NCBI GenBank assembly: GCA_029288895.1 | Contig: JARIGK010000001.1 | Location: 65,446 to 129,445 of the forward strand | From: Candidatus Adlerbacteria bacterium | GTDB lineage: Bacteria > Patescibacteriota > Minisyncoccia > Phycocordibacterales > SBAW01 | Direction: 5' to 3' | Length of the DNA: 64,000 nucleotides | Part shown: one piece after another, positions 2,762-21,846 of the stretch | How the letters are laid out: the number at the start of each line of letters is the position of its first letter | Numbering within the stretch: the stretch's first letter is position 1 | Notes under the pieces: generated by a model | The model's input: the letters and a program-made list of their open reading frames with translations, nothing else | Told to the model about the DNA's origin: nothing | Databases searched by the model: none | Translations under genes and position numbers: made by a program

Positions 2762-2781
2762 GGAGGAGTATACTAACCACT

Positions 2782-2973
2782 ATGAGACGCGTGCTCGCAT
2801 TACTCACCCCATTGTCGCTTGTAGGCATACTGAGTTTCTACGGAATCTCGTGGCTCCATGCGGCGCCAGAGCCAACGATGTGCGCAGTTACAGACCATAC
2901 TGCTTCTGCAACGGTCCCACAGGCACACACAGACGAGAGAGTTTATTTTGTTGGGTGCGGCGGGCTTTTCTAA
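2782..2973 (+). CDS. 63-aa exported or membrane-anchored small peptide (cassette 1 peptide). Hydrophobic N-terminus, conserved C-terminus ...ERVYFVGCGGLF.
   Basis: The palindromic -10 box AGTATACT lies 7 nt upstream of the ATG. The stop overlaps the next ATG (TAATG). A paralogous peptide at 14802 has the same C-terminal motif. Confidence 0.6.
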   Translation: MRRVLALLTPLSLVGILSFYGISWLHAAPEPTMCAVTDHTASATVPQAHTDERVYFVGCGGLF

Positions 2974-3422
2974 TGAGCACCAAAGACCCACGGGATTGGC
3001 GGATTGTGCCCACTGTATATAAGGAGGGGGAGTACGCAGCGCCTATTGCACGTTTTGAACGGAGCGATTTTGTATGGGAAAAACTCGGCGCAACACTCGA
3101 TGCGCACCGCCCACACGGGCTCGGTATTATGCTTTCGTTTGCATGGCAGCTCCATACGTATGCATATAACGAAGCAAACAAACGAGGTGTGGTGACTGCG
3201 GTTGCCATGCCCACCAACGTAAGCGCCTTGTCGGGGCTTATGAAATCAGTGCCTATTGATGCAGTGCTGACAACAGACGAAGGTGCGCGCGCGTTTATGG
3301 ACGATCTGCGCGAGGTAGGTATGCTCGAGCGCATCAAGGTATGGATTATCGTTTCACCCAAAGATGCGCCTAGCTCATTCACCGCACCCGTCGGTGTCAC
3401 CGTGCATGACATACTCCCATGA
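2973..3422 (+). CDS. About 150-aa protein of unknown function (cassette 1 middle gene). It is translationally coupled to the peptide upstream and the ligase downstream.
   Basis: ATG overlaps the peptide stop (TAATG). Its stop overlaps the ligase start (ATGA). About 40% identical to the 15012..15335 product (GLGI[ML]L, VxAVA[ML]P[TS]x[VI]SAL[ST]GL and IKxW[IF]IV motifs). Confidence 0.6.
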   Translation: MSTKDPRDWRIVPTVYKEGEYAAPIARFERSDFVWEKLGATLDAHRPHGLGIMLSFAWQLHTYAYNEANKRGVVTAVAMPTNVSALSGLMKSVPIDAVLTTDEGARAFMDDLREVGMLERIKVWIIVSPKDAPSSFTAPVGVTVHDILP

Positions 3423-4702
3423 ATAATCAACACGCACTTCTTCAAACAGCGCTCGACTTCGCGCTCCGAAATCCGCACTCTGATTTTTATCGTCGGAAGT
3501 TTGGCGCATCGTGGGAACAGTATTTTGGCAAGCCAATAGAAGACATTCCATTTCTGGTGCGAAAAGAAATTGATGATGCGCCGATATTTGAACGGACGTT
3601 TGTACCGCGCGAGATGGTGCGTTTTATCCGCTCGACGTCAGGCTCGAGCGGGAAACATGTGATCGGGTTCCCGATGCTTGAAGAAGGGTTGTATCAAGAA
3701 TTTTTGCGTTCTATCGGGTATACGCATACACCGGGGCAGCTCTCGCGTTACTTCGAACCATACTTTACGCAGATGAATATACGCTCGATGCTGCTCTTTT
3801 CCGCTGGCGCGTTTGTGCATGAGGCTCGCGTGCGAGACATGGAAGGAAGGCAGTGTATCGCTGGAGAATTTTCGCAACCCAAACTTACGGCACAGCTCGG
3901 TACCGAAGCCGCTGTGGATGCAATTGTCGGCAACCCAAGCGGGCTGGTCGATTTTGCTCCGCATATGCGTGCTGCCGGGGGCCATACAGGCGTCCGCCTT
4001 ATTATCTCGGTTGGTGAGCGCCCCACGGCACTCCAGTTTGAAACACTCGAGACTTCGTTCCCGAATGCAAAAATTGCATTGCAGTATGGCCTTACAGAAT
4101 CGCAAGGATATGTTGGCTATACCTGTCCAGAAAAACTAAGCGTCGACCCCAAAGCGCTGCACTTGGCAGAGGGGACCCTCTTTATGGAACTTATCGACCC
4201 GGATACCGAAGCGGTATTGCCGCTCCAGCCTGGCACCGAAGGCGAGGTGGTTATAACTACGCACGAACCGCAAGGATTCCCACTTATACGCTATCGGACC
4301 GGAGATTTTGCACGCATTCGCGAAGAGTCCTGTAGCTGTACGGGGAGCCCCTTGTTGTTTGAATGTATGGGGAGGCTCGAGCTTGATCGCGTGCGCGTCC
4401 CCAAAGGCATGCTCACGATTGCAGCAATTGAGCATGCAATTTTTGGGTTTGGCGGCGTTCGCGAATTTGAAGCGAAGTGGAATACAGACGGTGGCCTGCC
4501 TCGATTGGAGATTTCTTTATATATGGAACACCGATACGCTGCAGAACATGTTATGGCCGATGAGCTTGCGTCGCGCATCCGTATTGCGCCCACAGTAACC
4601 TACAAAACAATAGTGGACGAAGGTCGCGCACTGCCACTGTCCGTAACGATACTGCCTCCCGAACAGTGGGTCGGCTGGAAAAAGAAAAAGCGATTGCGTT
4701 AG
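3419..4702 (+). CDS. PaaK / coenzyme F390 synthetase / CapK-like adenylate-forming enzyme (ANL superfamily). Cassette 1 ligase.
   Basis: P-loop-like RSTSGSSGKHV near residue 70, a YRTGD hinge motif and a C-terminal subdomain of about 100 aa. Total length 427 aa, typical of phenylacetate-CoA ligase-like enzymes. Confidence 0.75.
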   Translation: MNNQHALLQTALDFALRNPHSDFYRRKFGASWEQYFGKPIEDIPFLVRKEIDDAPIFERTFVPREMVRFIRSTSGSSGKHVIGFPMLEEGLYQEFLRSIGYTHTPGQLSRYFEPYFTQMNIRSMLLFSAGAFVHEARVRDMEGRQCIAGEFSQPKLTAQLGTEAAVDAIVGNPSGLVDFAPHMRAAGGHTGVRLIISVGERPTALQFETLETSFPNAKIALQYGLTESQGYVGYTCPEKLSVDPKALHLAEGTLFMELIDPDTEAVLPLQPGTEGEVVITTHEPQGFPLIRYRTGDFARIREESCSCTGSPLLFECMGRLELDRVRVPKGMLTIAAIEHAIFGFGGVREFEAKWNTDGGLPRLEISLYMEHRYAAEHVMADELASRIRIAPTVTYKTIVDEGRALPLSVTILPPEQWVGWKKKKRLR

Positions 4703-5151
4703 TTCGTAAGGGGGAGTAGGTCGCCTGCAACAACGGTGTTTGCCTCAAGGCGGCTGCGCTCGAGCGAATTGGTAAATTGAATATAGATCTGTTCGCCTAT
4801 TTGAAACCCTGTTTGTTCAAGCGGCTCTACTGATACGTTAGCAATGACGCCGTCTGCTCCTGGAGTTCCATGGATGCGTGACATGGTTGCGTTCGGGGCG
4901 AGCCATATTTTTGCTGTTGCTGTTCGCCCCATGCCAGCATCATACGAAATGATCATCCACCCCGCATCGGTATTATTTTGAAGCAGCGTTGCAGATCGTC
5001 TCGTGTCTTTTATGACGCCCACTACGTTTGCTTTCGCTCTTTGAAGGTTTGGGTCTTTTGTTGCGTTGGCCTGCATAACATTGAGCGTGATGCTGCCAGC
5101 AAGCAATGCGCTCAATGCAAACAAGAAGGGCGCTGTACTTTTCTGGGTCAT
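4699..5151 (-). CDS. Secreted hypothetical protein (150 aa) with a signal peptide.
   Basis: Hydrophobic N-terminus (MTQKSTAPFLFALSALLAGSITLNVMQA). Convergent with the ligase, with a 4-nt overlap. Confidence 0.45.
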   Translation of the reverse strand: MTQKSTAPFLFALSALLAGSITLNVMQANATKDPNLQRAKANVVGVIKDTRRSATLLQNNTDAGWMIISYDAGMGRTATAKIWLAPNATMSRIHGTPGADGVIANVSVEPLEQTGFQIGEQIYIQFTNSLERSRLEANTVVAGDLLPLTN

Positions 5152-5157
5152 AGGTAG

Positions 5158-5586
5158 TTACTGAGTTGGCGATATAAATATAATCATAGCGTATGGAGTA
5201 GTATTGTTCGGGCTAAGCCACACGGTAGTGCGTATTCGCAGCCCGCTTTTTATTGTTTTTGCTGTGTCCGTTTGGAGCAGCCGCGAATCGACAATTAGTC
5301 CTTGCTCGTCTTGTGTAATAGTACGTACAAGCATGGCCGTGTCATTGTCGTAGTGGATGAGAATCGTGCGCGACACCCGGCCGGGGTACGGGTCTTCTTT
5401 CAGGAGAAATGAATCAGAGGATACCCGAGTAACAGTGCCACTGAGCGATAGCGACATACTGTGTTGCAATGTAAGTGCCGCTGCGGCGCTGCTGTTGTCG
5501 GGCAAGACTAATATCCCCATTGTTGAAGCAACAATAGCTCCAACACAGACGCCAAAGACGATCGCCAATGCTGAAGAAACATTCAT
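5158..5586 (-). CDS. Exported or membrane-anchored hypothetical protein (142 aa).
   Basis: N-terminal TM/signal segment. A TATACT -10 box lies 6 nt upstream of its ATG, on the minus strand at 5593-5598. Confidence 0.45.
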   Translation of the reverse strand: MNVSSALAIVFGVCVGAIVASTMGILVLPDNSSAAAALTLQHSMSLSLSGTVTRVSSDSFLLKEDPYPGRVSRTILIHYDNDTAMLVRTITQDEQGLIVDSRLLQTDTAKTIKSGLRIRTTVWLSPNNTTPYAMIIFISPTQ

Positions 5587-5634
5587 CCGTCCAGTATAGC
5601 GCGCATAGAGAAACCTTTCGCGTATACTATATAT

Positions 5635-7089
5635 ATGCGTATAGTTCGCACGTTTCTGCCAGCACTGGCGCTCGTCCTTGTGTGCGTGGTTTACATGCTA
5701 TTGCCGTTAGCAACACAAGACGCAGGAGGCGCCCTCCTTTCATGTGCTGCTATAGGTGTCGTGTTGTTGGCCATACTGGCGTGGGGGTATGTGCCTAGCC
5801 CTCGCCACTGGCATGTATCCCAATGGCTGCTTGTGGCATGTATAGGTTCGGTTTTTGTATCTGTGCTTCTGTCAAAAAATTACGCCCATGCGTTATGGGG
5901 ATTTTCGTTCGACATGACATCCGCGTTCTTCCTTTTGTTTGTATTCGTACTCCCACTTATTGTGGGTGGGCTTCCGGTCCATGTGCGGAGAATTATTTTT
6001 TTGGCGTCTTGTGTATCGCTTGCATTGCTCTTGATATATCCGCTCGTGCGCTCGGAAGTGTATGTCCGCCCGTCGAACGATGCCACAATGGGAATTGAAG
6101 CTGCCTCGTATGCAGATGGCGGGACGCGTGCACTCCTTGTTGGTGTAGGGCCCAACTCATTTTTGTATGCCTGGCAAAAATACAGGCCAACTGCGGTACT
6201 CACAACGCCATTTTGGAATGAAGATTTTCCTGTAGGTGGTAGTGTGCTCGCAACACTCATGATCGAATGTGGCGTACTGAGTGTCTTGCTCTTGTGTCTC
6301 GCATACTTGTCTGCGTGTGCAGAGGAAGTATGGAGAAGTCTCACAGAGGAATATTCGATCATTAGAAAAAGTTTGTATACGTTGCCTGCGTGGATCGTTC
6401 TTGGCTCTTTGTTTGCTCTTATGTTTGCGGAGCCGTCGGCGCCGCTGGTGTTGGTGTGTGGAATGCTTCTTGGGTCATTTCGCTTTCATACAGAGCCACG
6501 GATTGTACTCGGCCCATGGACTCGCGGCGCAGGTGTTGTAGTGGGTGTTGCATACCTGTGCGTTGTGGCCTATATAGCAACCGCTGTTATATTTTATTTT
6601 TCTGCGTTCTCAAAAGTGCAAGCGCAAGATCTGACTTCGGCGCAACACACAGGAGAATATTCCTATCAGCTCTATAAAAATCCACAGACTGCACGATTTC
6701 TTTCGCAGACCTTCCGTTCGCTTGGTCATGAACTTGGGCGGACGCACGTAGGGCAGGACACAATCCAAGCTTCCTTCCATGCTGCGAGCGCATATGCCCG
6801 TGCAGCAACGGTGCAAGAACCACAGAATGGCCAAAATTGGAAATTGCTTGGTATCAGTCTCGCAGAAGAATTAGCGCTGCAAAAAAATGCCGCCTTTTTT
6901 AGTGAAGGTAAAAAAGCTTTTGATACAGCAGCGGTGCGTATTCCTGCTGACCCATCAATTTTCTTTTTCGAAGCCCAGCTATATATCTTGGCAGGGGACA
7001 GAGAGGGTGCAAAGTCCTTGCTTGATAAAGCGCTTGCTTTGAAGCCTGACTATACCGAAGCAAACGATCTGCGTACGGCCATACAGTAG
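5635..7089 (+). CDS. Polytopic membrane protein, O-antigen ligase/Wzy-like, with a C-terminal TPR-like region.
   Basis: At least 10 predicted TM helices followed by a soluble C-terminal helical-repeat region (KALALKPDYTEAND). A TATACT box lies 6 nt upstream of the ATG. Confidence 0.45.
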   Translation: MRIVRTFLPALALVLVCVVYMLLPLATQDAGGALLSCAAIGVVLLAILAWGYVPSPRHWHVSQWLLVACIGSVFVSVLLSKNYAHALWGFSFDMTSAFFLLFVFVLPLIVGGLPVHVRRIIFLASCVSLALLLIYPLVRSEVYVRPSNDATMGIEAASYADGGTRALLVGVGPNSFLYAWQKYRPTAVLTTPFWNEDFPVGGSVLATLMIECGVLSVLLLCLAYLSACAEEVWRSLTEEYSIIRKSLYTLPAWIVLGSLFALMFAEPSAPLVLVCGMLLGSFRFHTEPRIVLGPWTRGAGVVVGVAYLCVVAYIATAVIFYFSAFSKVQAQDLTSAQHTGEYSYQLYKNPQTARFLSQTFRSLGHELGRTHVGQDTIQASFHAASAYARAATVQEPQNGQNWKLLGISLAEELALQKNAAFFSEGKKAFDTAAVRIPADPSIFFFEAQLYILAGDREGAKSLLDKALALKPDYTEANDLRTAIQ

Positions 7090-10091: not shown

Positions 10092-10148
10092 TCAAGAGCG
10101 TTTACAGGGCTCTTTGTGGCAGCTCCGGGTATACGGTATTCTTCTAGT

Positions 10149-10745
10149 ATGAGTACTCGTCCCATTCCTCGTCTTGTAGTCGGAGGAATACTGATGTGCC
10201 TTATATTTGCTCTCGCTCTTCAGGGTGGCGAGGCGTCTGCTGCAACACTTACGTCTCCGGTGACAGTGACAGGTAGTATTAGCGTGCTCGGCACGCTCTC
10301 CAAAGGTTCTGGTACATTCGTCATTGACCATCCGCTCGACCCTGCGAACGAATTGCTGTACCACTCCTTCGTCGAATCACCAGATGTAAAAAACCTCTAC
10401 GACGGCATCGCCACACTCGACAGCAAGGGGGAAGCGACAATTGTGTTGCCAGATTATTTTCTTGCACTCAATAAAGATTTTCGATATTTAGCAACACCCA
10501 TTGGCGCTCCTATGCCTACCTTGCATTTGGGCAAAGAGGTGGGCAAGCGCTGGTTTAATCTCTTTGGGGCAATACAATTTAAAATAACGGGTGGTGTGCC
10601 GGGCGGCCGCGTCTCATGGCAAGTCACGGGCATCCGCCACGACAAATTTATCGAGGACAATCCTATCCAGGTTGAAGTAGAAAAGACTGACGACACACTG
10701 GTAAAGAAGGGTGAATATCTTTTCCCTGAATTCTATGGACACTAA
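10149..10745 (+). CDS. Secreted protein with a conserved 'GSGTFVIDxPxDPANxLLYHSFVESPDVKN' domain (paralog 1 of 3).
   Basis: Signal/TM segment followed by the core KGSGTFVIDHPLDPANELLYHSFVESPDVKNLYDGIATLDSKGEATIVLPDYF, which is nearly identical in the next two genes. Confidence 0.55.
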   Translation: MSTRPIPRLVVGGILMCLIFALALQGGEASAATLTSPVTVTGSISVLGTLSKGSGTFVIDHPLDPANELLYHSFVESPDVKNLYDGIATLDSKGEATIVLPDYFLALNKDFRYLATPIGAPMPTLHLGKEVGKRWFNLFGAIQFKITGGVPGGRVSWQVTGIRHDKFIEDNPIQVEVEKTDDTLVKKGEYLFPEFYGH

Positions 10746-11292
10746 ACGAAACACTCTAAGAATTGGTGTAAGTATGTTAATACTGGCGATTCCCGTGCTC
10801 GCGTCTGCTGTCACCCTCACTGGAAACATACAATTTAAAGGAAATTTGGCGATAACAGGGGCGCTCTCGAAAGGCTCCGGCACCTTCGTCATCGATGATC
10901 CCATTGACCCTGCTAACAAACTGCTCTATCACTCGTTCGTCGAGTCGCCAGATGTAAAAAACATCTACGACGGCATCGCAACACTCGACAGCAAAGGGGA
11001 GGCAACTATTGTGCTGCCAGATTATTTCGATGCGTTGAACAAGGATTTTCGGTATGAATTTTTCCCGCTCGATAAGGCCGATCCAGGGCTCTATATAAAA
11101 ACTGGCGCCGACGTTGTGAAGAATCAATTTACGATTGCGGGCGGGACGCCAGGCGACCGCGTTTCGTGGCAAATCACTGGCATCCGCCACGACCCGTACA
11201 TTCTTGCGAACCCGGTTGTGGTAGAGGTTCCGAAAACCAACGATACTATTGTAAAAAAAGGCCAGTATCTATTTGAGGGGTATGAAAAATAA
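10735..11292 (+). CDS. Secreted conserved-domain protein (paralog 2 of 3).
   Basis: Same core domain with more than 85% identity over about 70 aa. The start is uncertain; either ATG 10735 or ATG 10774. Confidence 0.5.
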   Translation: MDTKRNTLRIGVSMLILAIPVLASAVTLTGNIQFKGNLAITGALSKGSGTFVIDDPIDPANKLLYHSFVESPDVKNIYDGIATLDSKGEATIVLPDYFDALNKDFRYEFFPLDKADPGLYIKTGADVVKNQFTIAGGTPGDRVSWQITGIRHDPYILANPVVVEVPKTNDTIVKKGQYLFEGYEK

Positions 11293-11986
11293 GACGATAT
11301 ATTTTTTTGCGCTTGCTTCACTTATATGTATGCCCATGGTGTGCGTGCACGCCTACGCTGAAGGCGGATATTACGGCCAAGGATATTATGAAGGGTATTA
11401 CCAAAGCTATTATCAGCCGTACTATCAGCCGTACTATCAGCCAACGTATCAAACGGTATTTACAAAAAATGCTGCTGCAAGCAAGACGGTGGCGGTTACG
11501 GGTAGCGTATCAAAAAGCTCCGGTACCTTCGTCATTGATGACCCAATCGACCCCGCTAACAAATTGCTTTACCACTCGTTCGTCGAGTCGCCTGACGTCA
11601 AAAACATCTACGATGGCATCGCAACACTCGACAGCAAGGGGGAAGCGACAATTGTGTTGCCCGATTATTTCGATGCGTTGAACAAGGATTTTAGATATCT
11701 GACGCGCCCAATTGGCGCCCCTATGCCAAACCTCTACATCAAAGATGAAGTGCACGACAACACATTTAGTATCGGTGGCGGGAGCCCTGGTGGACGTGTC
11801 TCATGGCAAGTCACTGGGATTCGCCACGATGCGTATATCGTTGCACACCCTATTGTCCCGGTGGTGGATAAAAGCAAAGACACAATCGTCGACCGTGGGA
11901 GCTATATCTATCCTGCAGGATTCACTTCATTTGGGAGTACATTCTTTGGATCTCTCTCGACGTTTTTTAATGCTATTTTCCACTAG
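11282..11986 (+). CDS. Secreted conserved-domain protein (paralog 3 of 3) with an N-terminal Tyr/Gln-rich low-complexity stretch.
   Basis: GGYYGQGYYEGYYQSYYQPYYQPYYQPTYQ followed by the same core domain. Confidence 0.5.
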   Translation: MKNKTIYFFALASLICMPMVCVHAYAEGGYYGQGYYEGYYQSYYQPYYQPYYQPTYQTVFTKNAAASKTVAVTGSVSKSSGTFVIDDPIDPANKLLYHSFVESPDVKNIYDGIATLDSKGEATIVLPDYFDALNKDFRYLTRPIGAPMPNLYIKDEVHDNTFSIGGGSPGGRVSWQVTGIRHDAYIVAHPIVPVVDKSKDTIVDRGSYIYPAGFTSFGSTFFGSLSTFFNAIFH

Positions 11987-11989
11987 CGC

Positions 11990-13177
11990 ATGAAGAAGTA
12001 TGTGCTTGTTGCGTGTGCCGGTGCGCTCCTTGTAGGAAGCGCAGCGCTGGTGTATGTAAAACACATACATACAACGCCCGAAGCATATGCCAAGAGTATT
12101 GTGGCTCGCTGCGCCAGTGCAGCCGACCGCACGCAGTGTTATGTGGACGAAGTGCCAAAACTTCTCGACCAAGGGGTAACGTTTGAACATTCGTTTGAAG
12201 TTGCGTACGACATCCAAGAACTCGACCAGACAGGCGAGTACTGCCATCGCATTGGGCACGCGCTTGGTGGGGCGGAAGTAGCAAAAGATCCTACTAAATG
12301 GAAAGAAGTTGCGCGCCGCACGCCGCTTGGCGAATGTCTTGCAGGAGGCTTGCATGGTGCGTTTGAAGAACATTTCAGTAAAGAGTCCCTTGCGCCTTCA
12401 GATATCCCAGCATTTAAACAAGAGATGCGCGGATTTTGCGATGTTCAGGCAGATATTCCATCATCGCCGGTGGATTTGACCATGTGTTCGCACGGTTTAG
12501 GCCATCTCTTTGTGTATGCAACAGCTGGAGATGTACAGGAATCGATCGACTTATGTTCTTCGATGAACTTTAAAACGGAAGGCGGCGTCACTGCAGAAGG
12601 CCAAGAGCTTTCCTGTTATGACGGTATGTTTATGCAGTTGCTTGAACCGCACGACAGTGAAGACGCAGCTCTTATTAAAGGGCATGAGCAAACAAAAGAT
12701 ACCGTGGGCGCCTACTGCAATGCATTCGCGCCGCTCGTACAAGCTGCATGTATCGCCCGAAGTGCCCCATTGTTTTATAAAGACTTAAATGCTGGTGCGC
12801 CCAAGCCGCTCGATTGCAATATGCTTGATAGCCAGCGTCGGCGTGACTCGTGCCTTTCGACACAGCTTCGTCTCTTTGCCCGTGATACGTTTTTTAACCT
12901 TGATGCCACGGACGACTACTGCGCTACCTACCCACAAAATAAACGGGGGTGGTGTTATGCGTCTGCTGGTTCGTTTGCGTTTATGTCCGGGTACGATTAC
13001 GAGCAGCCCTATCGTTTTTGTGCGCGGGCAGCAGCGCTTGGGGTTGGCGACCAATGCTATCAGACGCTTGCGAACATCATCCCTAACACATTCCGCGAAG
13101 ATGATCCGTCTCGTAAAGAGTTGTGCGAAAAGCTGCCCAGCGCTTATGTGCAGGCATGCATTGCGCAGCAGCAGTAA
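11990..13177 (+). CDS. Membrane-anchored, extracytoplasmic Cys/His-repeat protein (family member A). About 7 repeats of C-x-x-G... including C-x-HG-[LI]-GH.
   Basis: N-terminal TM segment. Motifs CHRIGHALG, CLAGGLHGAF, CSHGLGHLFVY, CYDGMFMQ and others. 16 Cys in total. Confidence 0.55.
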   Translation: MKKYVLVACAGALLVGSAALVYVKHIHTTPEAYAKSIVARCASAADRTQCYVDEVPKLLDQGVTFEHSFEVAYDIQELDQTGEYCHRIGHALGGAEVAKDPTKWKEVARRTPLGECLAGGLHGAFEEHFSKESLAPSDIPAFKQEMRGFCDVQADIPSSPVDLTMCSHGLGHLFVYATAGDVQESIDLCSSMNFKTEGGVTAEGQELSCYDGMFMQLLEPHDSEDAALIKGHEQTKDTVGAYCNAFAPLVQAACIARSAPLFYKDLNAGAPKPLDCNMLDSQRRRDSCLSTQLRLFARDTFFNLDATDDYCATYPQNKRGWCYASAGSFAFMSGYDYEQPYRFCARAAALGVGDQCYQTLANIIPNTFREDDPSRKELCEKLPSAYVQACIAQQQ

Positions 13178-13183
13178 AGCCCG

Positions 13184-14779
13184 TTATTTTCTAAGCTCGA
13201 GTAGTCGTGCTGTAAGTGGTGCGAATACTTCTGTGTGAGCGCGCGCATCCAGTGCTAGAAGGGTAGATAGTGCGTATGCAGATTGTAGGTCGCGTTTGTA
13301 CGAAAGTAGTGTATAGCCTGTAGGTGCAAGCTCCACTGTCGAGCGACTTTCAAATAATGATGTGCCAGGGGGGAATGGGCCCGTCTCATTTCCGATCATA
13401 AAGAGAGATGAAATGCCGCCGCGCAACATAAAAAACACGCTCGTCCGGTATGGGTCGTACGTGCCGGTAACATAGGTGCCAAGCGAAAGGTCATCGAAGT
13501 AACCTACGACACGCTCAAAATGTGCGCTTCCTGTGCGCGAAGCTAATACAAGGTTCCGAAGCGTTTCGAGTTGTTCGGCCCCAAGCATCGCAGGGAGTGT
13601 GCGTTGGTCTGTTGTAGTGAGGAGCCGTTCCGCACTTTGTATAAATGCTCGATACGATTGCTCGCGAGGCACATCTTCACTAATGAGTTCGTTTTGTGCA
13701 GCGAGCATATCATGTACGGTGGATGAGTTAGAAGGCATGAGCGGGACGATAGGATGTTGTTGCAATGTTTCGCGTGCGTCTTGTATCGACAGCAGAAGCC
13801 CAACGTCCTGGCCAAAATCTTGGCAAATATAGGCATTAAATGATTGGTTGGAATAGGTCGCCCCAGTGTTGTAGTACGCCTTGCTGTAGCGCACGGGTAT
13901 TTTCTTGAGGTCGTAAAAGAAAGAGTCGTTCAAGATTGTAAAATATTCCGCTGTCACGCCAGAAAGTATGGACGCGTGTGTTCCCACATCAACATATGCA
14001 GGAGTAAATGACGGATAGCATCGTGAATGAGAAAGTGCAACGGTGGTCGTGTCGGTAAGCGTTACGCCGAGGCGTGCAGTAAACGCACGCGCTGCAGTTT
14101 TGATATACGCCACATCGCTCGGGAGGTCGGTCGATGCAGGTAATGTGTTCTGTGCTGATGGAGAAGAGGCTCCTGATGGAGGCCAATACCTCCAGTGTGC
14201 GCACTCGAGCACGTTACCTTCTGCACACGAGTAGCGCCTATTTTCTTCTTTTCTCATTGCGATGAGCCCTTGTCTGCCTCGTTCGAGCACTGACATGATA
14301 TACCCTGAGCTTGTAGTGCCGCCAAAGGATTGAATGGTAGTTTTTTTGCCGACATCGAGCGCCGCAATATCGTGTGCGAGCGCTGCATCATATGAATCAA
14401 AAAGTGCGAGAAGGGCAGCGTGGTACGCGTCTGCATGTGCTGATGTCGGCTCTGTAAGGAGTGCTCTTCGTTTTTCTTCTGCCGAGGCGCTAGCTTCAAG
14501 AAATGCGATTGGGTAGACACCGTGGCTCCATGAGCCATCCGAATCGTCGCTGAAGGGGAGTACTGCAACGCGCGCACTTTTTTCGAGCTCTTGTGTCGCC
14601 GTGATCATATCAGGCAGCGATGTTCGAGGAAGCGCCATCATGGGATATTCCTCATGTTGCCGTGCATATCCGGCCCATCCATCTGCGTGTGCGGAGTAGA
14701 AGAAATACCCTAGAACTATAAGGATACAAAGGAGAAGTGCGAGACCAAGGCGGAGTGCACGTATTCTTGCAGCCTTCAT
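13184..14779 (-). CDS. 531-aa N-terminally membrane-anchored protein of unknown function (paralog of 16615..18246).
   Basis: Single N-terminal TM segment. Shares AEPT(S/Q)xHAxxYHAAL(L/H)AL and other blocks with the 546-aa paralog. Divergent from the cassette 2 peptide, sharing the AGTATACT palindrome. Confidence 0.55.
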   Translation of the reverse strand: MKAARIRALRLGLALLLCILIVLGYFFYSAHADGWAGYARQHEEYPMMALPRTSLPDMITATQELEKSARVAVLPFSDDSDGSWSHGVYPIAFLEASASAEEKRRALLTEPTSAHADAYHAALLALFDSYDAALAHDIAALDVGKKTTIQSFGGTTSSGYIMSVLERGRQGLIAMRKEENRRYSCAEGNVLECAHWRYWPPSGASSPSAQNTLPASTDLPSDVAYIKTAARAFTARLGVTLTDTTTVALSHSRCYPSFTPAYVDVGTHASILSGVTAEYFTILNDSFFYDLKKIPVRYSKAYYNTGATYSNQSFNAYICQDFGQDVGLLLSIQDARETLQQHPIVPLMPSNSSTVHDMLAAQNELISEDVPREQSYRAFIQSAERLLTTTDQRTLPAMLGAEQLETLRNLVLASRTGSAHFERVVGYFDDLSLGTYVTGTYDPYRTSVFFMLRGGISSLFMIGNETGPFPPGTSLFESRSTVELAPTGYTLLSYKRDLQSAYALSTLLALDARAHTEVFAPLTARLLELRK

Positions 14780-14801
14780 CAGAGACAGTATACTTTACTG
14801 C

Positions 14802-15002
14802 ATGAAGAGGAGATTCGCCCTCATACCACTATTTCTCCTTTCAGCCCTTGCTGTGGGAATGCTTTCTTCAAAAAGAGATGCAGCACTGAGCTGTGTCGAG
14901 CCTGGGGTGGGCGCATCTGCTCCGAACATGTCGAATTCTTCGTCGGTACAAGCAGAAGAGTCAGATCGAGTCTACAATATTTGGTGCGGAGGCGTTTTCT
15001 AA
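14802..15002 (+). CDS. 66-aa exported or membrane-anchored small peptide (cassette 2 peptide). C-terminus ...DRVYNIWCGGVF.
   Basis: Paralog of the 2782..2973 peptide. AGTATACT lies 7 nt upstream of the ATG. Confidence 0.6.
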   Translation: MKRRFALIPLFLLSALAVGMLSSKRDAALSCVEPGVGASAPNMSNSSSVQAEESDRVYNIWCGGVF

Positions 15003-15011
15003 AACGACGGT

Positions 15012-15335
15012 ATGGATGATGCACATAGGACGTCCGCGTGGCCCGCACTCGGGCGCATGCTTGATGATATCCAACCCAAAGGCCTTGGCATTTTGTTGCC
15101 CCCGATACTTCAACTCCATCGACCTGCATATCTTGAAGCGCGTGCGCGCACTATTGTAGTCGCTGTTGCGCTTCCGTCGCAGATTTCCGCACTTACTGGT
15201 CTGGTTGAAGAAGCTTCGATCGAAGCTGTTATAGCAACACAAGGAGCGGCGAATGAATTTGCTGCCGATTTGGAGCGAGTAGGGCTTACAACAAATATAA
15301 AAGCCTGGTTTATTGTCGACGAAAAACCACTATGA
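15012..15335 (+). CDS. 107-aa protein of unknown function (cassette 2 middle gene), paralog of 2973..3422.
   Basis: About 40% identity to the cassette 1 middle gene. Its stop overlaps the ligase start. Confidence 0.55.
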   Translation: MDDAHRTSAWPALGRMLDDIQPKGLGILLPPILQLHRPAYLEARARTIVVAVALPSQISALTGLVEEASIEAVIATQGAANEFAADLERVGLTTNIKAWFIVDEKPL

Positions 15336-16618
15336 CACCGCTCTCCCGCGCGCTTTCATTTGCGATTGAAAATCCGCATTCTGATTTTTACCGCCGCAAG
15401 TACGGCAAAGACTTTCGTGCGTATATACAAAAAGAACTTTCGGAGATTCCATTTCTGACAAGACAAGAAATAGATACAACGCCCGTGTTTGACCGCATCT
15501 TTGTTCCAAAAGAAATGGTCCGGTTTGTGCGTGCGACCTCAGGTTCGTCCGGGCGCGGCGCAGTTCTATTTCCAGCAGTCGAAGAGCCGGAGATGATGGA
15601 CTTCCGACGTTCGCTCGGGTTTAGCGGCGACGAAGGTGAGGCCGGGCGCTACTTCGGGCCCTATTTTAAAAAAGAAGATGCATATTCACTGTTGATGTTT
15701 TCTACGTCCGATGCTTTGCATCAAGCCTATTTTTCCGACTACGCTGGCCGGAGGGTTATCGCGGGCGACTATCAACACGCAGAAAAGACAGTTGCACTGT
15801 CGGCAGCTGCAGGCGTTGATTCGATATTTTCATTTCCGTCGCCGCTTATCAGCATTGCAGACACTTTCAAAAAAGATGGTTTTGCCTCGCGCATCAAGAT
15901 GATTGTGCTCATGGGTGAGCGTATGACAGAACTCCAGCGCAGAACGCTTGTTGCGCAGTTTCCTCATGCAAAGATCGTCACGCTCTATGCGTCCACTGAT
16001 GCACATGGAACGATGGGGAATACGTGCCCTGCTCGCGTGACAGAATTTCCTAACCATATTCATCCGTTTCCAACATATGCGCTTGAAGTTATTGACCCTG
16101 AGTCGGGCATGGCGCTCCCTATGCAGGCAGGCACGGAAGGAGAAGTGGTAATCACGGCACTCACGCCGATGGCGTTTCCGCTCATTCGATATCGCACCGG
16201 AGATTATGCGGTCGTGCACGCCAGCGGCCCATGTGCGTGCGGCAGTACTGAGCCGCTTCTTGAGATTTTGGGCAGAGTAGAACTCGATCGCATTAAACTG
16301 CTCCCGTATGGCGGCGTGAGCGTTGCGGCTATCGAAGAAGCAATTGCTGCCCTTCCATTTCCTGTTCTTGATTTTACTGCTGCATGGTCACAGAAGGGTC
16401 CGCTGCCGGGACTCTCGCTCGTGCTCTATACCGACGGGTCTGTACCTCATGATTCTGTCGCGCTCGTGGCAGAGAAAATCCAAGTCAGCGCGACCCATAC
16501 GTATCACGATGTAGTGGTGCGTGGTGCTGTCTTGCCACTTACAGTTTCTTTTGAACCTGCAGCGGGTGCGCGTGGTCCGCATCATGCAAAGCCTAAACGT
16601 CTGCAGATTATCCGTTAG
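15332..16618 (+). CDS. PaaK / F390-synthetase-like adenylate-forming enzyme (cassette 2 ligase).
   Basis: RATSGSSGRGAV P-loop, YRTGD hinge, 428 aa. About 50% identity to the 3419..4702 product. Confidence 0.75.
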   Translation: MTPLSRALSFAIENPHSDFYRRKYGKDFRAYIQKELSEIPFLTRQEIDTTPVFDRIFVPKEMVRFVRATSGSSGRGAVLFPAVEEPEMMDFRRSLGFSGDEGEAGRYFGPYFKKEDAYSLLMFSTSDALHQAYFSDYAGRRVIAGDYQHAEKTVALSAAAGVDSIFSFPSPLISIADTFKKDGFASRIKMIVLMGERMTELQRRTLVAQFPHAKIVTLYASTDAHGTMGNTCPARVTEFPNHIHPFPTYALEVIDPESGMALPMQAGTEGEVVITALTPMAFPLIRYRTGDYAVVHASGPCACGSTEPLLEILGRVELDRIKLLPYGGVSVAAIEEAIAALPFPVLDFTAAWSQKGPLPGLSLVLYTDGSVPHDSVALVAEKIQVSATHTYHDVVVRGAVLPLTVSFEPAAGARGPHHAKPKRLQIIR

Positions 16619-18246
16619 TGGCTAGTGTCTGTATGAGTGTGCGCGTAGCGAGCGCGAGCATCGAGAAGGGACGAAATAAAGCCTCCAAATACCTGTTGGC
16701 GGATCTGTATATCTTGGAGAAGTGTCTTTTGCAATTCGTTTCTTGAAAGTTCTTTGCTCACGTCGTGTGTATATGAACGGATAGTGCCATTAAGCAATGC
16801 ATTATTCGAATCGGATGCGGTTGCGCGCACCTCGACGAGTGAGCGGAAGATGGGCTCCACCGTTCTATTATTGAGTGCAAATAATTGCGAAAGCCCGCTG
16901 CGTGCAATAAGAAATGCTTGCGGCGAGCTTTTTCTGTATTGATATGGAATATAGCTGCCGACTTGGAGGTCGTCGAAATATCCAAGCACTTCGGCGAGAT
17001 CGGCGCTACGCGCTCTGCTTTGGGCTACTAGTTCGGTGAGACGCGCGGCTTCTTCGCTGCTGCCGAGATAGTGCGCTAACGCATCTATCCCGTAGATGCG
17101 CACCAGCATGGACGATGCTGATATAAACGCATTGTAGGTGCGTTGCGTGTATACATTTTCTTGCAGCACGTGTTTTTGTGCCTGTATAAATTGCTGCGCC
17201 GTTGGTGTCAGAGAGCCGGAAAATAGAAACGGCTTGGTTCGAAGAGACGCCGAGAGATTTGAAATAGCAAGAACGTCGCCGATGTCTTCGCCTGCATCAG
17301 GGCACAAATACACGTTGAAGGGCTGATACGTAAATGTGTCGCCTGCGCTGGCGAGCGCGTGGTAAAACGGATGGTCGGTACGGGTCGTGTCGTCGAGATA
17401 TATGTCGCTCAGTAGTACAACATTGGCTGCTGCGATTCCTGAAAGTCTGGATGAGGTCGTCGCGACTGCAAAATATATCGGCGCATAGGCGTAACATGCA
17501 GAGGACGAAAGTTCTATAAGAGGAGAGGAATCAAGAGAAGGATAGACTACTGTGAGTGTCTTCCTATTCTCTACCGCTTCTTCCGTGGATGAAGATTCCG
17601 ATTGAGATTCAAGCTCTTGTGCGCTATGGAGTGTGCCAAACGTTGCGCGTGCATATATGAGTGACTCGCACTGAGATGCGGTTCCTTGTTCGCACTGCCA
17701 GCGTCTGTCTTCTTGTGCGAGTAATGATTGAGCATCTGTCTGTGCGTGCGCAAGACGCTCTTCTATATGTGCGCTTGTGGTTTTGCCACTTAAAAAATCA
17801 AACTCTGCAGGATCGTTTTGTTGGAGAAGCACATTCCGCGCATTTCTCAGGTCGTCTATATACGAAGAGATAAGCGCGTGCAGTGCAGCGTGGTACATGG
17901 AGGCGTGTTCTTGTGTCGGCTCGGCAAGAAGAGCGCGTCGAGCTGTTTCGGTGCGTGGGAGTTGGTCCAAAAAACGAAATGGGTACAGCGCGTCGCGTGT
18001 GGCCTCGCCTTCGAGGTATGGAGGTACTGCAACCGCTGCGGAGAGTTTAAATTCGGACACCGCATGTGTAAGCGATTCGGGCGTACTTCCTGGGAATGCA
18101 AATAGTGGATCAAGCTGCTGCATCTGTGCGTATGCGGCCGCACTGCCTTGCATGGTGTACATTTCATGCAACCGCTCCCATGCGCCTATGCCAAAGAGGG
18201 CAGCCACCAACAGAAGGCAGAGGAGGCCGGTTTTGAGTCTATACAT
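16615..18246 (-). CDS. About 543-aa N-terminally membrane-anchored protein of unknown function (paralog of 13184..14779).
   Basis: Convergent with ligase 2, with a 4-nt overlap. Probable ATG at 18246. The track extends it to a TTG at 18255. Confidence 0.55.
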   Translation of the reverse strand: MYRLKTGLLCLLLVAALFGIGAWERLHEMYTMQGSAAAYAQMQQLDPLFAFPGSTPESLTHAVSEFKLSAAVAVPPYLEGEATRDALYPFRFLDQLPRTETARRALLAEPTQEHASMYHAALHALISSYIDDLRNARNVLLQQNDPAEFDFLSGKTTSAHIEERLAHAQTDAQSLLAQEDRRWQCEQGTASQCESLIYARATFGTLHSAQELESQSESSSTEEAVENRKTLTVVYPSLDSSPLIELSSSACYAYAPIYFAVATTSSRLSGIAAANVVLLSDIYLDDTTRTDHPFYHALASAGDTFTYQPFNVYLCPDAGEDIGDVLAISNLSASLRTKPFLFSGSLTPTAQQFIQAQKHVLQENVYTQRTYNAFISASSMLVRIYGIDALAHYLGSSEEAARLTELVAQSRARSADLAEVLGYFDDLQVGSYIPYQYRKSSPQAFLIARSGLSQLFALNNRTVEPIFRSLVEVRATASDSNNALLNGTIRSYTHDVSKELSRNELQKTLLQDIQIRQQVFGGFISSLLDARARYAHTHTDTSH

Positions 18247-18269
18247 GCGCTTCAAGTATACTAAATACC

Positions 18270-19517
18270 GTGACTATTCCGTTGTCTATGCGCCGAGTGA
18301 CGCCGCTCATTATCTCGGTCTTTATTCTTGGCGCTACTGCGTGCTACGGCTACTACACGCACCAGAGGACGCCGTACCCGGAACTCCAAGATTTGGCGCT
18401 CCATCCGCGAAGTTTCCCCGAACTCCAAACGTATTTTAAAAATCTTGCGCAACAAAAAGGTGCGCTCTATGCATACCAAATTTTGCGCGAGGCAGAGCTG
18501 CCGCCGCAGACAGACGTGCATCTCCTTGGGCACACCGTGGGAGATGAGTTGTATAAGCAGTATGGCAAAGATGCAATTTCATATTGTACGAATGAGTTCA
18601 GGAACGCGTGCTCTCATTCTGTCGTTATCGGACTTCTTCTCGAGTACGGAACGTCGGTGCTTGATGATATTAACGAGTCATGCAAAAAAGCGCCCGGCGG
18701 TATCGGCGCCTACACAATGTGTTTCCATGGGTTAGGACATGGCGTTCTTGCGTATGAACAGTACGATTTGCCGAAGACCATCGCGCTCTGCAAAAAAATG
18801 GGAACCGCGGCATATCATAACGAAGAGTATGGGCAGTGTGTTGGTGGCGCGATTATGGAAGGGATTGCCGGGGGCGGCCACGACAGGGCCTCGTGGGAAA
18901 AAGCACGTCCGCAGTATTACACTACTCAAGATCCGCTTTCGCCATGCGACCAGAGCTATATGCCACAAGAAGTCCGTACCTTCTGTTACATCTACATCAC
19001 GCCGCATTTGGTTGAGGCCGCTGGCGGCGATATGAATCATCCAGACCCGAGCGTTTTTCCAAAAGCATTCTCGTTCTGCCGGGCACTCCCCGAATCTGAC
19101 CATAACAGGGAAGTGTGCATGAACGGGTTTGGAAAAGAATTTGTTGGATGGGCTCGCCAGAGCGACCCGCGCAGCATCACAACGCTTACTGACCAAGAAA
19201 TGGAGTTGAGTTCTTCGTGGTGTGCACTTTCGGGTACTGCCAAAGATACCCGCTACTGCTTGCAGGGTATTCAGTCATATGTGTACTGGGGTGGAGAAAA
19301 TGACCCGCGCCCATCGGTCCGTTTTTGTTCTTTGTTATATGCGCAGGATCCAGACTCTGGGTCGACCTGTTACGAAGATTTGTCGCGTCTTATCGCAAAA
19401 TATGTTGTTGATCCGGATACGCGCAAAGCAACATGCGCATTGTTGCCTGAGTCTGTGCAACACGAATGCATGACATTTAAACAAACGTGGAACGGCGAGC
19501 CCGATGTGCTGCACTGA
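18270..19517 (+). CDS. Cys/His-repeat exported protein (family member B).
   Basis: GTG start 7 nt after AGTATACT. N-terminal TM segment. Motifs CSHSVVIG, CFHGLGHGVLAY, CVGGAIMEG, CMNGFGKEF, CLQGIQSY. Confidence 0.55.
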   Translation: MTIPLSMRRVTPLIISVFILGATACYGYYTHQRTPYPELQDLALHPRSFPELQTYFKNLAQQKGALYAYQILREAELPPQTDVHLLGHTVGDELYKQYGKDAISYCTNEFRNACSHSVVIGLLLEYGTSVLDDINESCKKAPGGIGAYTMCFHGLGHGVLAYEQYDLPKTIALCKKMGTAAYHNEEYGQCVGGAIMEGIAGGGHDRASWEKARPQYYTTQDPLSPCDQSYMPQEVRTFCYIYITPHLVEAAGGDMNHPDPSVFPKAFSFCRALPESDHNREVCMNGFGKEFVGWARQSDPRSITTLTDQEMELSSSWCALSGTAKDTRYCLQGIQSYVYWGGENDPRPSVRFCSLLYAQDPDSGSTCYEDLSRLIAKYVVDPDTRKATCALLPESVQHECMTFKQTWNGEPDVLH

Positions 19518-19527
19518 TATAGCCCAC

Positions 19528-20604
19528 ATGAGCGGAGCAATTACTAGGACAAAACAGTATACGGTAGGTCTCTTGTGTATAGCGCTTGTCGTATGCGCAG
19601 GGCTACTGCTGTATTCGAGATCTGCCGCCGCATCTCTACCAACGTTTGATTTACATACGCACGATGGTCTCGTGCAAGCAGAATCATTCTGGAACAAAGA
19701 GATTGCGCGTGTTGGCGGAGAAAAAGCGTACACTGAATTTCTCGAATTCTACGCAACTTCGACGCCTCAAGATCAGCATACTGCTGCGCATATCTTTGGC
19801 GGCAGTTTATTTACAGACGAAGGAGTGCCCGGGCTCGCGGTGTGTGACACATCTTTTTCGTACGGCTGTTTCCACGAATTCCTCGCGCGCGCGATACAGC
19901 AAAACGGACTCGGCAGCGTCGACATGCTTAACGAAGCGTGTTTCCAAGCGCTGGGGCCGGGGAAGTCACTTTCCTGCGCGCATGGGTTAGGCCACGGGAT
20001 TCAGTCGTACCTTGGATACAATAACGACGCGCTCAAAAAAAGCTTAGGTATTTGTAAAACTTTGCCGTACGGCGACCCAATAGGAGGCTGTCCAGGCGGC
20101 GTATTTATGGAATTCAATATGCGTACGATGGGATCTACGTCGGGCATTCCGACGCGGCCACTTGAGCCGGGTGGTTGGTACTATCCATGCAACACCTTAT
20201 CCGTTGACGACAAAGCAGTCTGCTACTACTGGCAAACACAGTGGTGGGCACAGGTTTTGAAAGGGCAAGGAAAGAATACGGATGAGTCGTTTGTAACGAT
20301 GGGGAGATTATGCGAAAGTATTTCTTCTTCGTATCGAGAAAAGTGTTTTTCCGGTATTGGCACCCTTATAGGCATTGATTCAGATTTTGATGTTGAGAAA
20401 GCAGGTACGTTATGCAGAGAAACCTCTCCTCTAGAAAGTCAGCAGAATGTGTGTCTTATAACCGGCGCAAGCTCTTTTTTTGCTGAGCCTACAGCCCGAG
20501 CTCGAGCGTCAGGTGTGTGCTTGAATATTGCAGAACCCTGGTACACGCGTTGTGTGCGATCTTCTTTAGGAAAATCAGAAGTACCGCCCCCTATGGGAGA
20601 TTAA
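19528..20604 (+). CDS. Cys/His-repeat exported protein (family member C).
   Basis: CAHGLGHGIQSY, CPGGVFMEF, CFSGIGTLIG. TGATAT -10-like box 7 nt upstream of ATG 19528. Confidence 0.55.
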   Translation: MSGAITRTKQYTVGLLCIALVVCAGLLLYSRSAAASLPTFDLHTHDGLVQAESFWNKEIARVGGEKAYTEFLEFYATSTPQDQHTAAHIFGGSLFTDEGVPGLAVCDTSFSYGCFHEFLARAIQQNGLGSVDMLNEACFQALGPGKSLSCAHGLGHGIQSYLGYNNDALKKSLGICKTLPYGDPIGGCPGGVFMEFNMRTMGSTSGIPTRPLEPGGWYYPCNTLSVDDKAVCYYWQTQWWAQVLKGQGKNTDESFVTMGRLCESISSSYREKCFSGIGTLIGIDSDFDVEKAGTLCRETSPLESQQNVCLITGASSFFAEPTARARASGVCLNIAEPWYTRCVRSSLGKSEVPPPMGD

Positions 20605-20610
20605 TACACT

Positions 20611-21846
20611 ATGACTGCGTTGCATCCAGAAAAAAAAATCTCATTGCGCGTACGCATCCTTGGGTTTGCTATGGTGTTTGTGCTCGCTGCGTTTTTTATT
20701 GTTGGGGCAAACCCGACGCTTTCCCAAAGCGCGGCACACCTTACGGCAAAAGCGTTCGTAATGTATTGCACGAAGCAGACTGACAATGCTGCGTGTTACG
20801 AACGTACCGTACCGCGGCTGTTATATATAAGCCCCATCAGCAGTGTCTTTTCAGTGGTGCGCGAAATCCAAGCGCAAGATTCGTCGTATCGTTTTTGCCA
20901 TGTACTTGGACATCAGCTTGGTGTGTTTGAAGTGCAGCGCGACCCTAACCATTGGATGGATCTTTTGCATAACAACCCGCCAGACGGCCTGTGCTCCAAC
21001 GGGTATATCCATGGCGTTATGGTGCAGAAGTTTAGTGAGACAGTATTTACTCCTGCACAAATTGATGCGATCGTCCCAGACCTCTCCCGGGCGTGCGAAC
21101 CGTCGCCGGGGTGGAACCCGAGCGATCTTGATAAAGCAATGTGCTACCACGGTATAGGGCATGTCCTCACGCACATGACAGACGCGAATATGCCGCTGGC
21201 AGTTTCGTACTGTAAACAAATTGCGATCAAGGGCAATGAAGACTACAGCCGGGTGTGTATTTCTGGAGTATTTATGCAGATATTTCAGCCCCTTGAGCCG
21301 GAAGATTACGCGCTTATCGCACGCTTGCCTGTGAAGCCGACAAAAGAAAATCTCGCATCGTTTTGTAGTGCGTACGCGACAGAGGAAGAGAGGAGTGCGT
21401 GTCTTGGTGAAGGGTGGCCGCTCTATCGCGAACAATTACAAACAGCAGAGGGGATAGAAAAGTTTTGCACGACCAGCACCGTACCCTCAACACAAAAAAA
21501 TTGCTTTATGACGGTGTTCTCCATTGGCGCACGCGGGTCTCTGGCTGATCCAGGGCCGCACGAGGCGCTCTGTACTTCATTGCCGGCGCCATATGCAGAA
21601 GAGTGCCGCGGCATTTTGGCTGAAGCGTTTATCGAAGAAGACAGAACTAAGGTCGCGAGTGCCGCTGCAGTATGCAGTCGTGCAGAAAGTAGCAGCGCGC
21701 AGGACGCCTGTTATGAATATCTGCTTGCCCGTGCAGCGTTTACCTTTGGTAATGACAAGAGTGCGCTGGAGCCTCTCTGTAAGGTATTTCCTGCATCGTG
21801 GGCTGCCCGATGCGAGGCGGGCGAACGGCCTGAAATTCAGCAATAG
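20611..21846 (+). CDS. Cys/His-repeat exported protein (family member D).
   Basis: CHVLGHQLG, CSNGYIHGV, CYHGIGHVLTH, CISGVFMQI, CFMTVFSIG. Confidence 0.55.
   Translation: MTALHPEKKISLRVRILGFAMVFVLAAFFIVGANPTLSQSAAHLTAKAFVMYCTKQTDNAACYERTVPRLLYISPISSVFSVVREIQAQDSSYRFCHVLGHQLGVFEVQRDPNHWMDLLHNNPPDGLCSNGYIHGVMVQKFSETVFTPAQIDAIVPDLSRACEPSPGWNPSDLDKAMCYHGIGHVLTHMTDANMPLAVSYCKQIAIKGNEDYSRVCISGVFMQIFQPLEPEDYALIARLPVKPTKENLASFCSAYATEEERSACLGEGWPLYREQLQTAEGIEKFCTTSTVPSTQKNCFMTVFSIGARGSLADPGPHEALCTSLPAPYAEECRGILAEAFIEEDRTKVASAAAVCSRAESSSAQDACYEYLLARAAFTFGNDKSALEPLCKVFPASWAARCEAGERPEIQQ

Follow-up and report, generated by a model that had tools for sequence, protein, structure and literature searches.

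We analysed a 64,000-nucleotide stretch of the Candidatus Adlerbacteria contig JARIGK010000001.1 (positions 65,446 to 129,445; hereafter the window), in which two minus-strand genes encoding membrane-anchored proteins of 531 and 543 amino acids flank a cassette made up of a small two-cysteine peptide, a degenerate ligase copy and a PaaK-like adenylate-forming ligase (cassette 2; Table 1). A related cassette (cassette 1) lies in the same window. The 531-aa and 543-aa proteins are ancient paralogs of one family. Comparison of gene neighbourhoods provides good support for a functional linkage between this family, the peptide and the ligase, and points to a conserved cell-surface module consisting of the family protein, the two-cysteine peptide, the ligase and the degenerate ligase copy. 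As to its role, the family protein may well be the dedicated extracytoplasmic partner of the peptide, in a 1:1 relation, docking or processing it.

Table 1. Features of the window that are discussed in the text
Feature	Position	Strand	Description
AGTATACT box	2767..2774		7 nt upstream of the peptide 1 ATG
Peptide 1 (cassette 1)	2782..2973	+	63 aa, C-terminus ...ERVYFVGCGGLF
Cassette-1 pseudo-ligase	2973..3422	+	149 aa; ATG overlaps the peptide stop (TAATG)
PaaK-like ligase 1	3419..4702	+	427 aa, cassette 1
Two small N-terminally anchored proteins	4699..5586	-	150 and 142 aa; homologues in L013 and L001
Polytopic membrane protein, C-terminal TPR	5635..7089	+	484 aa; homologues in L001, L005, L007 and L013
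Cys-rich membrane-anchored protein	11990..13177	+	19 Cys in 395 aa; converges on the 531-aa gene
Family member 1	13184..14779	-	531 aa, ATG; membrane anchor and ~495-aa ectodomain; family HMM E 3e-133
AGTATACT box	14787..14794		7 nt from both the 531-aa and the peptide 2 start codons
Peptide 2 (cassette 2)	14802..15002	+	66 aa, basic/hydrophobic N-terminus, Cys31, C-terminus ...DRVYNIWCGGVF
Cassette-2 pseudo-ligase	15012..15335	+	107 aa, degenerate PaaK-like N-domain fragment; 47% identical to the cassette-1 copy
PaaK-like adenylate-forming ligase 2	15332..16618	+	428 aa, cassette 2; 42% identical to ligase 1
Family member 2	16615..18246	-	543 aa, ATG; membrane anchor and ectodomain; family HMM E 2.9e-137
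AGTATACT box	18255..18262		8 nt from the 543-aa ATG 18246 (-), 7 nt from the Cys-rich operon GTG 18270 (+)
Three tandem Cys-rich anchored paralogs	18270-19517, 19504-20604, 20611-21846	+	415, 366 and 411 aa
AGTATACT box	54503-54510		6 nt ahead of dnaE

Linkage of the family to the peptide and ligase genes

Genomic contexts were drawn from exact look-ups of family representatives from different clades, from a scan of GTDB genomes with a DNA pattern for the peptide C-terminus, and from a search of metagenomes with one of the family's distant sub-clades. The resulting loci (numbered L001 onwards) were scored with a hidden Markov model (HMM) of the family, an HMM of the ligase and a regular expression for the peptide. 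A PaaK-like ligase and/or a small peptide was found to adjoin the family gene in 21 of the 28 non-redundant loci, which supports the functional connection between membrane proteins and cassette that an earlier reading of the window from its sequence only had suggested. The remaining seven are contigs that end within ~520 bp on one side of the family gene. The contig of L026, for example, stops 223 bp past the family gene, and its relative L025 carries ligase and peptide downstream. The contigs of L017 and L022 were too short to be informative. Where at least 2.4 kb was available on both sides, every family gene (14/14) had a ligase within 1.9 kb and a two-cysteine peptide within 3.3 kb, and in 14 loci the peptide gene lay at most 270 bp from the family gene. 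The adjacency is kept across loci down to ~20-23% identity. Homologs occurring widely without such cassettes would have spoken against the proposed connection; the family is indeed wide (570 clusters, see below), and none of the 28 loci provided a counter-example.

The arrangement of the genes varied between the loci. The family gene is divergent from the peptide gene in the window and in L001-L003, L006, L020, L030 and L032; it follows the peptide gene in L018, L019, L027 and L028, precedes it in L005 and L010, and in L025 the order is family, ligase, peptide. At L020/L021, pseudo-ligase, ligase, peptide and family gene stand alone between the genes for EF-Ts and rpsB/RF-1, and this locus is a self-contained four-gene module. 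The copy numbers of family, peptide and ligase genes were 2/2/2 in the window and in L019, and 1/1/1 in L005, L018 and L020, so that the three agreed in most loci. The closest named relative of the window was a 'Candidatus Saccharibacteria' metagenome-assembled genome (MAG). The window itself resembles a Patescibacteria genome, with split transketolase genes and many anchored proteins, few of which have Pfam matches.

The two paralogous genes

The two flanking genes had been described as related, and a BLASTP comparison of their products gave 30% identity over 504 aa with an E-value of 2e-57, well outside what chance would produce. Likewise, the single N-terminal transmembrane (TM) segment ascribed to each was recovered, as in both proteins a basic N-terminus leads into a single hydrophobic segment and the remainder is hydrophilic. 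The arrangement around cassette 2 also proved accurate: the 531-aa gene is divergent from the peptide gene, with starts at 14779 and 14802 that leave 22 nt between them and the AGTATACT palindrome inside, while the second paralog is convergent with the ligase gene, the two ending at 16615 and 16618 with a 4-nt overlap. The length of the second protein had to be corrected, since the sequence-only reading gave 546 aa and the coordinates 16615..18246 encode 543 aa from the ATG at 18246. The 546-aa version corresponds to the open reading frame (ORF) 16615..18255, which opens at a TTG at 18255; this codon overlaps the promoter-like AGTATACT box at 18255-18262 and is unlikely to be the start. The database entry for the second paralog (P0004) is 543 aa long, and P0005 and P0006 are orthologues of the same protein.

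For the first gene, the public annotation (P0001, 484 aa) begins at Met48, so that the membrane anchor is lost. The N-terminal anchor is retained in all homologues of the 531-aa protein and, because of this, the 531-aa start given by the sequence-only reading is better than the annotated one.

Size, conservation and predicted structure of the family

An exhaustive search of 1.84 billion cluster representatives with the family profile matched 570 clusters at 50% identity (E<=1e-3), 486 of them at E<=1e-10. Nearly all matches are 480-600 aa long and align from end to end. Word-indexed homology searches returned two to three relatives for each paralog, and the alignment of 106 sequences retrieved the same three; these results would wrongly imply a tiny family. 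A related-locus pattern search of GTDB genomes and JGI metagenomes with the alignment A1 returned no loci. The family members sit on contigs that are labelled as Patescibacteria (candidate phyla radiation, CPR) or on unlabelled metagenomic contigs, and all contigs that could be named were Patescibacteria. The only name that any source gave to a member was 'hypothetical protein'.

An N-terminal TM segment was present in 134 of the 151 best family representatives and is followed immediately by a strongly conserved unstructured motif. Among 106 diverse members, P46, C185, C254 and C319 are invariant, and C193, P90, L94, E101, R104, Y119, G154, R182, Q312, Y317, R453 and N464 are conserved in at least 90%. 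Structure prediction, proposed earlier as a check, gave a confident AlphaFold2 model of the 531-aa protein from a six-sequence alignment (pLDDT 84.5, pTM 0.85), for which there was no detectable neighbour in PDB or BFVD. The model shows one long N-terminal helix (residues 2-32) and then a mostly helical alpha/beta ectodomain with a small sheet at 242-312. Judged by their positions in the predicted secondary structure, the four conserved cysteines would be compatible with a pair of structural disulfides, one (C185/C193) holding a helical hairpin together and the other (C254/C319) close to the sheet. Conserved cysteines of this kind fit an oxidising, extracytoplasmic ectodomain.

No known family or fold was recognised. 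Pfam and NCBIfam gave no family at E<=0.01 for either paralog, and a Pfam scan of 20 diverse members at E<=1 gave no recurring family. The best match of the family profile to PDB sequences had an E-value of 0.31, which is not significant. Foldseek searches with the 531-aa model gave a best E-value of 0.48 against PDB, with TM-scores below 0.2 and hits that amounted to helical-bundle or transporter noise, and a best E-value of 0.21 against BFVD, with no significant neighbour.

The two-cysteine peptides

Altogether 24 distinct homologous peptides of 60-90 aa share a common layout. The N-terminus is usually basic, with a flank of zero or positive charge in 23 of them, and is followed by a hydrophobic segment; peptides of the close relatives have a plausible signal-peptidase site, e.g., ...ASA|AQC. 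Past the hydrophobic segment each peptide has exactly two cysteines, spaced by 14-31 residues. The C-terminus reads [FYL]-x-x-C-[GSA]-G-[FILVY]-[FLYI], i.e., Φ-x-x-C-[GSA]-G-Φ-Φ, followed by zero to two D/E/N residues. In 15 of the 24 the cysteine is five residues from the C-terminus and two hydrophobic residues form the end, and in the other nine one or two extra D/E/N residues come after the motif. By the positive-inside rule, the C-terminal part of the peptide and the family ectodomain would both face the exterior of the cell. A protein of such short length must be finished before it is targeted to the membrane, and a cytoplasmic ligase could therefore act on the peptide first.

The motif scan also led to a contig carrying an Actinomycetota label (L011, JBLIMJ010000008.1, from an Acidimicrobiales MAG), where positions 3170-5676 encode a genuine peptide (...EIYFVGCGGFF), a pseudo-ligase and a ligase. 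The neighbours of this cassette are uvrB and ABC (ATP-binding cassette)-transporter-like genes, and a family gene was absent from the 8 kb fetched. The contig has been mis-binned, or else the cassette is not confined to Patescibacteria.

Ligases and pseudo-ligases

The window ligases match PF00501 and NF045666 below the family cut-offs, scoring 94-102 bits against NCBIfam equivalog cut-offs of 300. They retain the P-loop-like TSGSSG and YRTGD motifs. In PDB, the best sequence match of ligase 2 was PaaK (2y27, E 3e-15), and NatL2/AjiA1 were also among the best solved relatives.

The small protein encoded between peptide and ligase is, judged by its similarity to the ligase, a truncated and degenerate ligase copy. 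The 107-aa pseudo-ligase of the window matches positions 127-180 of the ligase HMM, while those of distant loci are 265-284 aa long and match various parts of positions 3-296. Such long pseudo-ligases are found at L005 (7054-7908), L011 (3608-4432) and L020 (7750-8547), and the one at L005 has SSLNINS at the P-loop position. In the lineage of the window the protein has thus shrunk to 107-149 aa. The pseudo-ligase may be a pseudo-enzyme or a peptide-recognition subunit.

The AGTATACT box and transcription of the module

The AGTATACT palindrome occurs four times in the window against an expectation of 0.3. It is kept between the family and peptide genes in L001, L002 and L006, and L003 has GTATACT. 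A promoter scan found TTGAGT-18-TATACT at the 18255..18262 box, and TAnAnT recurs at -12/-13 in many first genes of the window (starts 5586(-), 5635, 23368, 25152, 25786 and 35650). The palindrome is best read as a shared bidirectional -10-like box for apparently leaderless mRNAs. Being conserved and shared, it would imply that the family and peptide genes are co-expressed. A function as a module-specific operator was rejected, since the box is found ahead of dnaE as well and TAnAnT recurs in first genes generally. On a wider scale, a TATACT-type -10 box stands 6-8 nt ahead of many first-gene starts with no room for a Shine-Dalgarno sequence, which suggests that leaderless mRNAs are widespread in this genome. 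Two divergent gene pairs share one 8-bp palindrome each, which provides the -10 box in either direction. A literature search on leaderless promoters in Patescibacteria returned nothing relevant.

Possible roles of the family protein

How could such a protein act together with the peptide and the ligase? As a dedicated partner, it would meet a peptide on which the cytoplasmic ligase pair had worked, either ahead of export of the Sec/YidC type or in the course of it. Outside the membrane, the family protein would then dock, hold or process the conserved Cys-containing C-terminal motif of the peptide at the cell surface. The genome's two peptides, from cassettes 1 and 2, would have the two paralogs as their partners, although both paralogs are parked at cassette 2.

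Several points weigh against this proposal. No motif for catalysis or binding is recognisable in the ectodomain of the family, and the substrate of the ligase need not be the peptide. The copy numbers at L016 are 2/2/3, with three ligase-like genes for two family genes. Four of the six genuine peptide loci from the motif scan (L007, L008, L011 and L013) lack a family gene within the 8 kb fetched, and cassette 1 of the window likewise has none adjacent to it, so not every cassette needs one adjoining. Because cassettes occur without a family gene nearby, it is the family that depends on the cassette and not the converse. Another possibility is that a single locus accommodates the partners of both cassettes, as seen in the window and in the Saccharibacteria MAG (L006/L013). 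The sample of contexts is, in addition, biased to what the collections hold, and several of the contigs are short.

An active role of the ectodomain would be a different matter. PaaK-type enzymes form thioesters from acyl-adenylates, and a cysteine five residues from a hydrophobic C-terminus has the geometry of the thiolactone rings of staphylococcal autoinducing peptides (AIPs). With PaaK as the nearest solved relative of the ligases, whose type of chemistry yields thioesters, and with 15 of the 24 peptides ending in such an AIP-ring-like manner, the family protein could be an extracytoplasmic enzyme (such as a transferase, cyclase or protease) that draws on a high-energy bond, e.g., a Cys thioester or a C-terminal thiolactone, which the ligase has placed on the peptide in the cytoplasm, and so ligates or cleaves the peptide outside the cell, where there is no ATP. 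The near-invariant polar residues of the family and the conserved unstructured motif past its anchor would suit an enzyme as well. We nevertheless regard this as unlikely: the family has no conserved His/Ser/Asp triad or free catalytic Cys, its four conserved cysteines are consistent with predicted structural disulfides, the extra D/E/N residues in nine of the 24 peptides would make the ring size vary, and the second conserved Cys of the peptide suggests a simple disulfide. An elaboration of the same idea would make the module an energy relay, in which the ligase and the pseudo-ligase, the latter for recognition, spend ATP on making an internal thioester or thiolactone, export of the Sec type follows, and the family protein is a transferase of a new fold that attaches the peptide to a surface or host acceptor. 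This is a long shot, and we would give equally little credence to the corresponding structure of the product, an AIP-like ring made from the C-[GSA]-G-Φ-Φ motif by an enzyme of the ANL superfamily (acyl-CoA synthetases, non-ribosomal peptide synthetases and luciferases) in place of AgrB. If true, the relay would be a previously unknown peptide-conjugation pathway, found so far almost only on Patescibacteria contigs.

Alternatively, the family proteins could be ordinary CPR surface proteins or adhesins in a surface island, co-regulated with the cassette and without direct interaction with it. The region in the window is full of anchored and secreted proteins to which no function has been assigned, the AGTATACT box is a general promoter element and not specific to the module, and membrane families without annotation abound in CPR genomes (PMC6744442). 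Such an island would, however, hardly explain that the adjacency holds at ~20% identity and in varied orders and orientations, that the neighbours at L020/L021 are housekeeping genes, or that the copy numbers of the family follow those of peptide and ligase, and we consider it improbable. A peptide gene next to a membrane protein gene is also the usual layout of bacteriocins and their immunity factors, and the 1:1 pairing of peptide and family genes would fit a family protein that protects the cell against its own toxic, bacteriocin-like secreted peptide. Known immunity proteins are, on the other hand, small and mostly polytopic, whereas here a single anchor carries a 500-aa ectodomain; the C-terminal motif of the peptide is conserved across the radiation, although toxins and immunity factors usually diversify; and no dedicated exporter is present. 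Protection of this kind therefore seems very improbable. Finally, the family protein could be the acceptor to which the ligase-activated peptide is covalently attached, giving a complex of a small and a large subunit. The gamma subunit of quinohemoprotein amine dehydrogenase, a small peptide that undergoes cytoplasmic modification before it joins large subunits in the periplasm, offers a precedent for this, and 1:1 copy numbers and immediate adjacency would be expected of it, but no conserved Lys, Ser or Thr stands out among the invariant positions of the family. An acceptor role is purely speculative and scarcely probable at all.

Comparison with known systems

The likeness of the module to PaaK, NatL2, AjiA1 and CapK-like enzymes lies in the fold-family sequence motifs of the window ligases, that is, in the neighbouring genes only and not in the membrane proteins. 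The window ligases differ from PaaK systems in being paired with a degenerate half-copy. No PaaK system is known to include a two-cysteine peptide bearing a signal or an anchored ectodomain protein.

With the agr system the module shares a peptide that, like AgrD, has a membrane-associating N-terminus and a C-x-x-Φ-Φ end, sometimes with acidic residues after it, and an adjacent gene for a membrane protein. AgrB, however, is a polytopic membrane peptidase, whereas the family proteins have one TM segment and a 500-aa ectodomain with no similarity to AgrB and no Pfam match. Ring closure in agr needs no ATP-dependent ligase. An AgrB-type reading of the family was rejected because of the single TM segment and the lack of an AgrB Pfam match. 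Annotated genes near the module in the window, L001, L003, L005, L016 and L018-L021 included none for a histidine kinase or for AgrC-AgrA; in L011 a receiver-like ORF lies two genes away from the peptide.

Clusters for ribosomally synthesised and post-translationally modified peptides (RiPPs) resemble the module in that an enzyme gene comes directly after a peptide gene, that the C-terminal motif of the peptide is conserved in the manner of a core and, possibly, that there is a recognition subunit in the form of the pseudo-ligase. The N-terminus of the peptide is like a Sec signal or anchor here, in contrast to a RiPP leader. According to Pfam and NCBIfam, the family proteins contain no peptidase, ABC-transporter/exporter or RiPP recognition element (RRE) domain. 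Literature searches found no RiPP class that combines a PaaK-like ligase with a peptide of this type, no PaaK-peptide system in CPR bacteria and nothing relevant on thiolactones together with PaaK.

A sortase or exosortase signal was rejected, as the peptide motif is at the extreme C-terminus with zero to two residues after it and the hydrophobic segment is N-terminal. Type IV pilins share with the peptides an N-terminal hydrophobic helix and a C-terminal two-cysteine loop; a pilin or pseudopilin was rejected because the G|F/M-x-x-x-E motif is present in none of the 24 peptides. For a bacteriocin immunity protein the adjacency to a peptide gene would be expected, and the size and topology of the family would be atypical.

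A large part of bacterial diversity belongs to the Patescibacteria. These bacteria live in attachment to other cells, and for most of their surface proteins no function is known. For the proteins described here, the entry 'hypothetical membrane protein' becomes a defined four-gene module. If it is true that the ligase modifies the peptide, the module would represent a new class of ribosomal peptide chemistry, and possibly a mechanism of surface conjugation relevant to the epibiotic lifestyle. In a survey of CPR genomes, Meheust et al. (2019) found 106 families enriched in CPR bacteria, mostly unannotated, of which 76 have one or more TM helices (PMC6744442). The present family resembles these in being membrane-anchored and without an assigned function, and a linkage to peptide and ligase genes is not described there.

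Other genes near the module

The four Cys-rich paralogs of the window have 17-19 cysteines each. Their family shares ~12 Cys as well as invariant HxxxHxxG and CxHGxGH motifs, which are possibly a metal site. No Pfam or PDB match was found for these proteins. An AlphaFold2 model of the 411-aa copy is an all-helical, disulfide-rich repeat or solenoid (pLDDT 74) that gave only weak, HEAT/ARM-like Foldseek matches, and a predicted solenoid of this type is uninformative as to function. The Cys-rich family is conserved beside the module in L003, L005, L008, L010, L016, L018 and L019. At L005, positions 4480-5766, between the ligase and the Cys-rich protein, encode a 428-aa polytopic protein with a weak MauE-like match, which may have a part in handling the disulfides or redox state of exported Cys-rich components.

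Two small proteins encoded downstream of cassette 1 had been pointed out as occupying the position that the family protein has at cassette 2. Their existence and their N-terminal hydrophobic segments stood up, but the correspondence with the family is positional only, as they co-occur with it in L001 and L005. Pairs of the same size, anchored and at the equivalent place, are present in L005 and L019 (compared by size). The possibility that the pair represents fragments or equivalents of the family was rejected, since no similarity was detected and the two co-occur elsewhere; the small proteins are additional parts and not substitutes.

Transporter genes stand beside the cassette at two distant loci. 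An ABC permease and an ATPase (both assigned by Pfam) with an unannotated flanking protein are encoded at L016 (1064-4174), and genes for a polytopic and an anchored protein, ABC-transporter-like, at L011 (5722-7970). They could be an uptake system for an acid substrate of the ligase.

Directly upstream of cassette 1, positions 29-2761 encode a surface-type protein of at least 910 aa with Gly/Ser/Thr-rich repeats, including 'NVGIGTTTP'-like units, and no Pfam match; this ORF may extend past the start of the window. Between the accessory genes of cassette 1 and a group of secreted-protein paralogs lie two tandem genes of the sulfatase family (PF00884; 7099-10091). The paralogs themselves, three in tandem at 10116-11986, are secreted or anchored proteins of ~190-240 aa without a Pfam match. 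They share a nearly identical core, SKGSGTFVIDxPxDPANxLLYHSFVESPDVKNxYDGIATLDSKGEATIVLPDYFxALNKDFRY, and the third has a Tyr/Gln/Pro-rich repeat past its signal segment.

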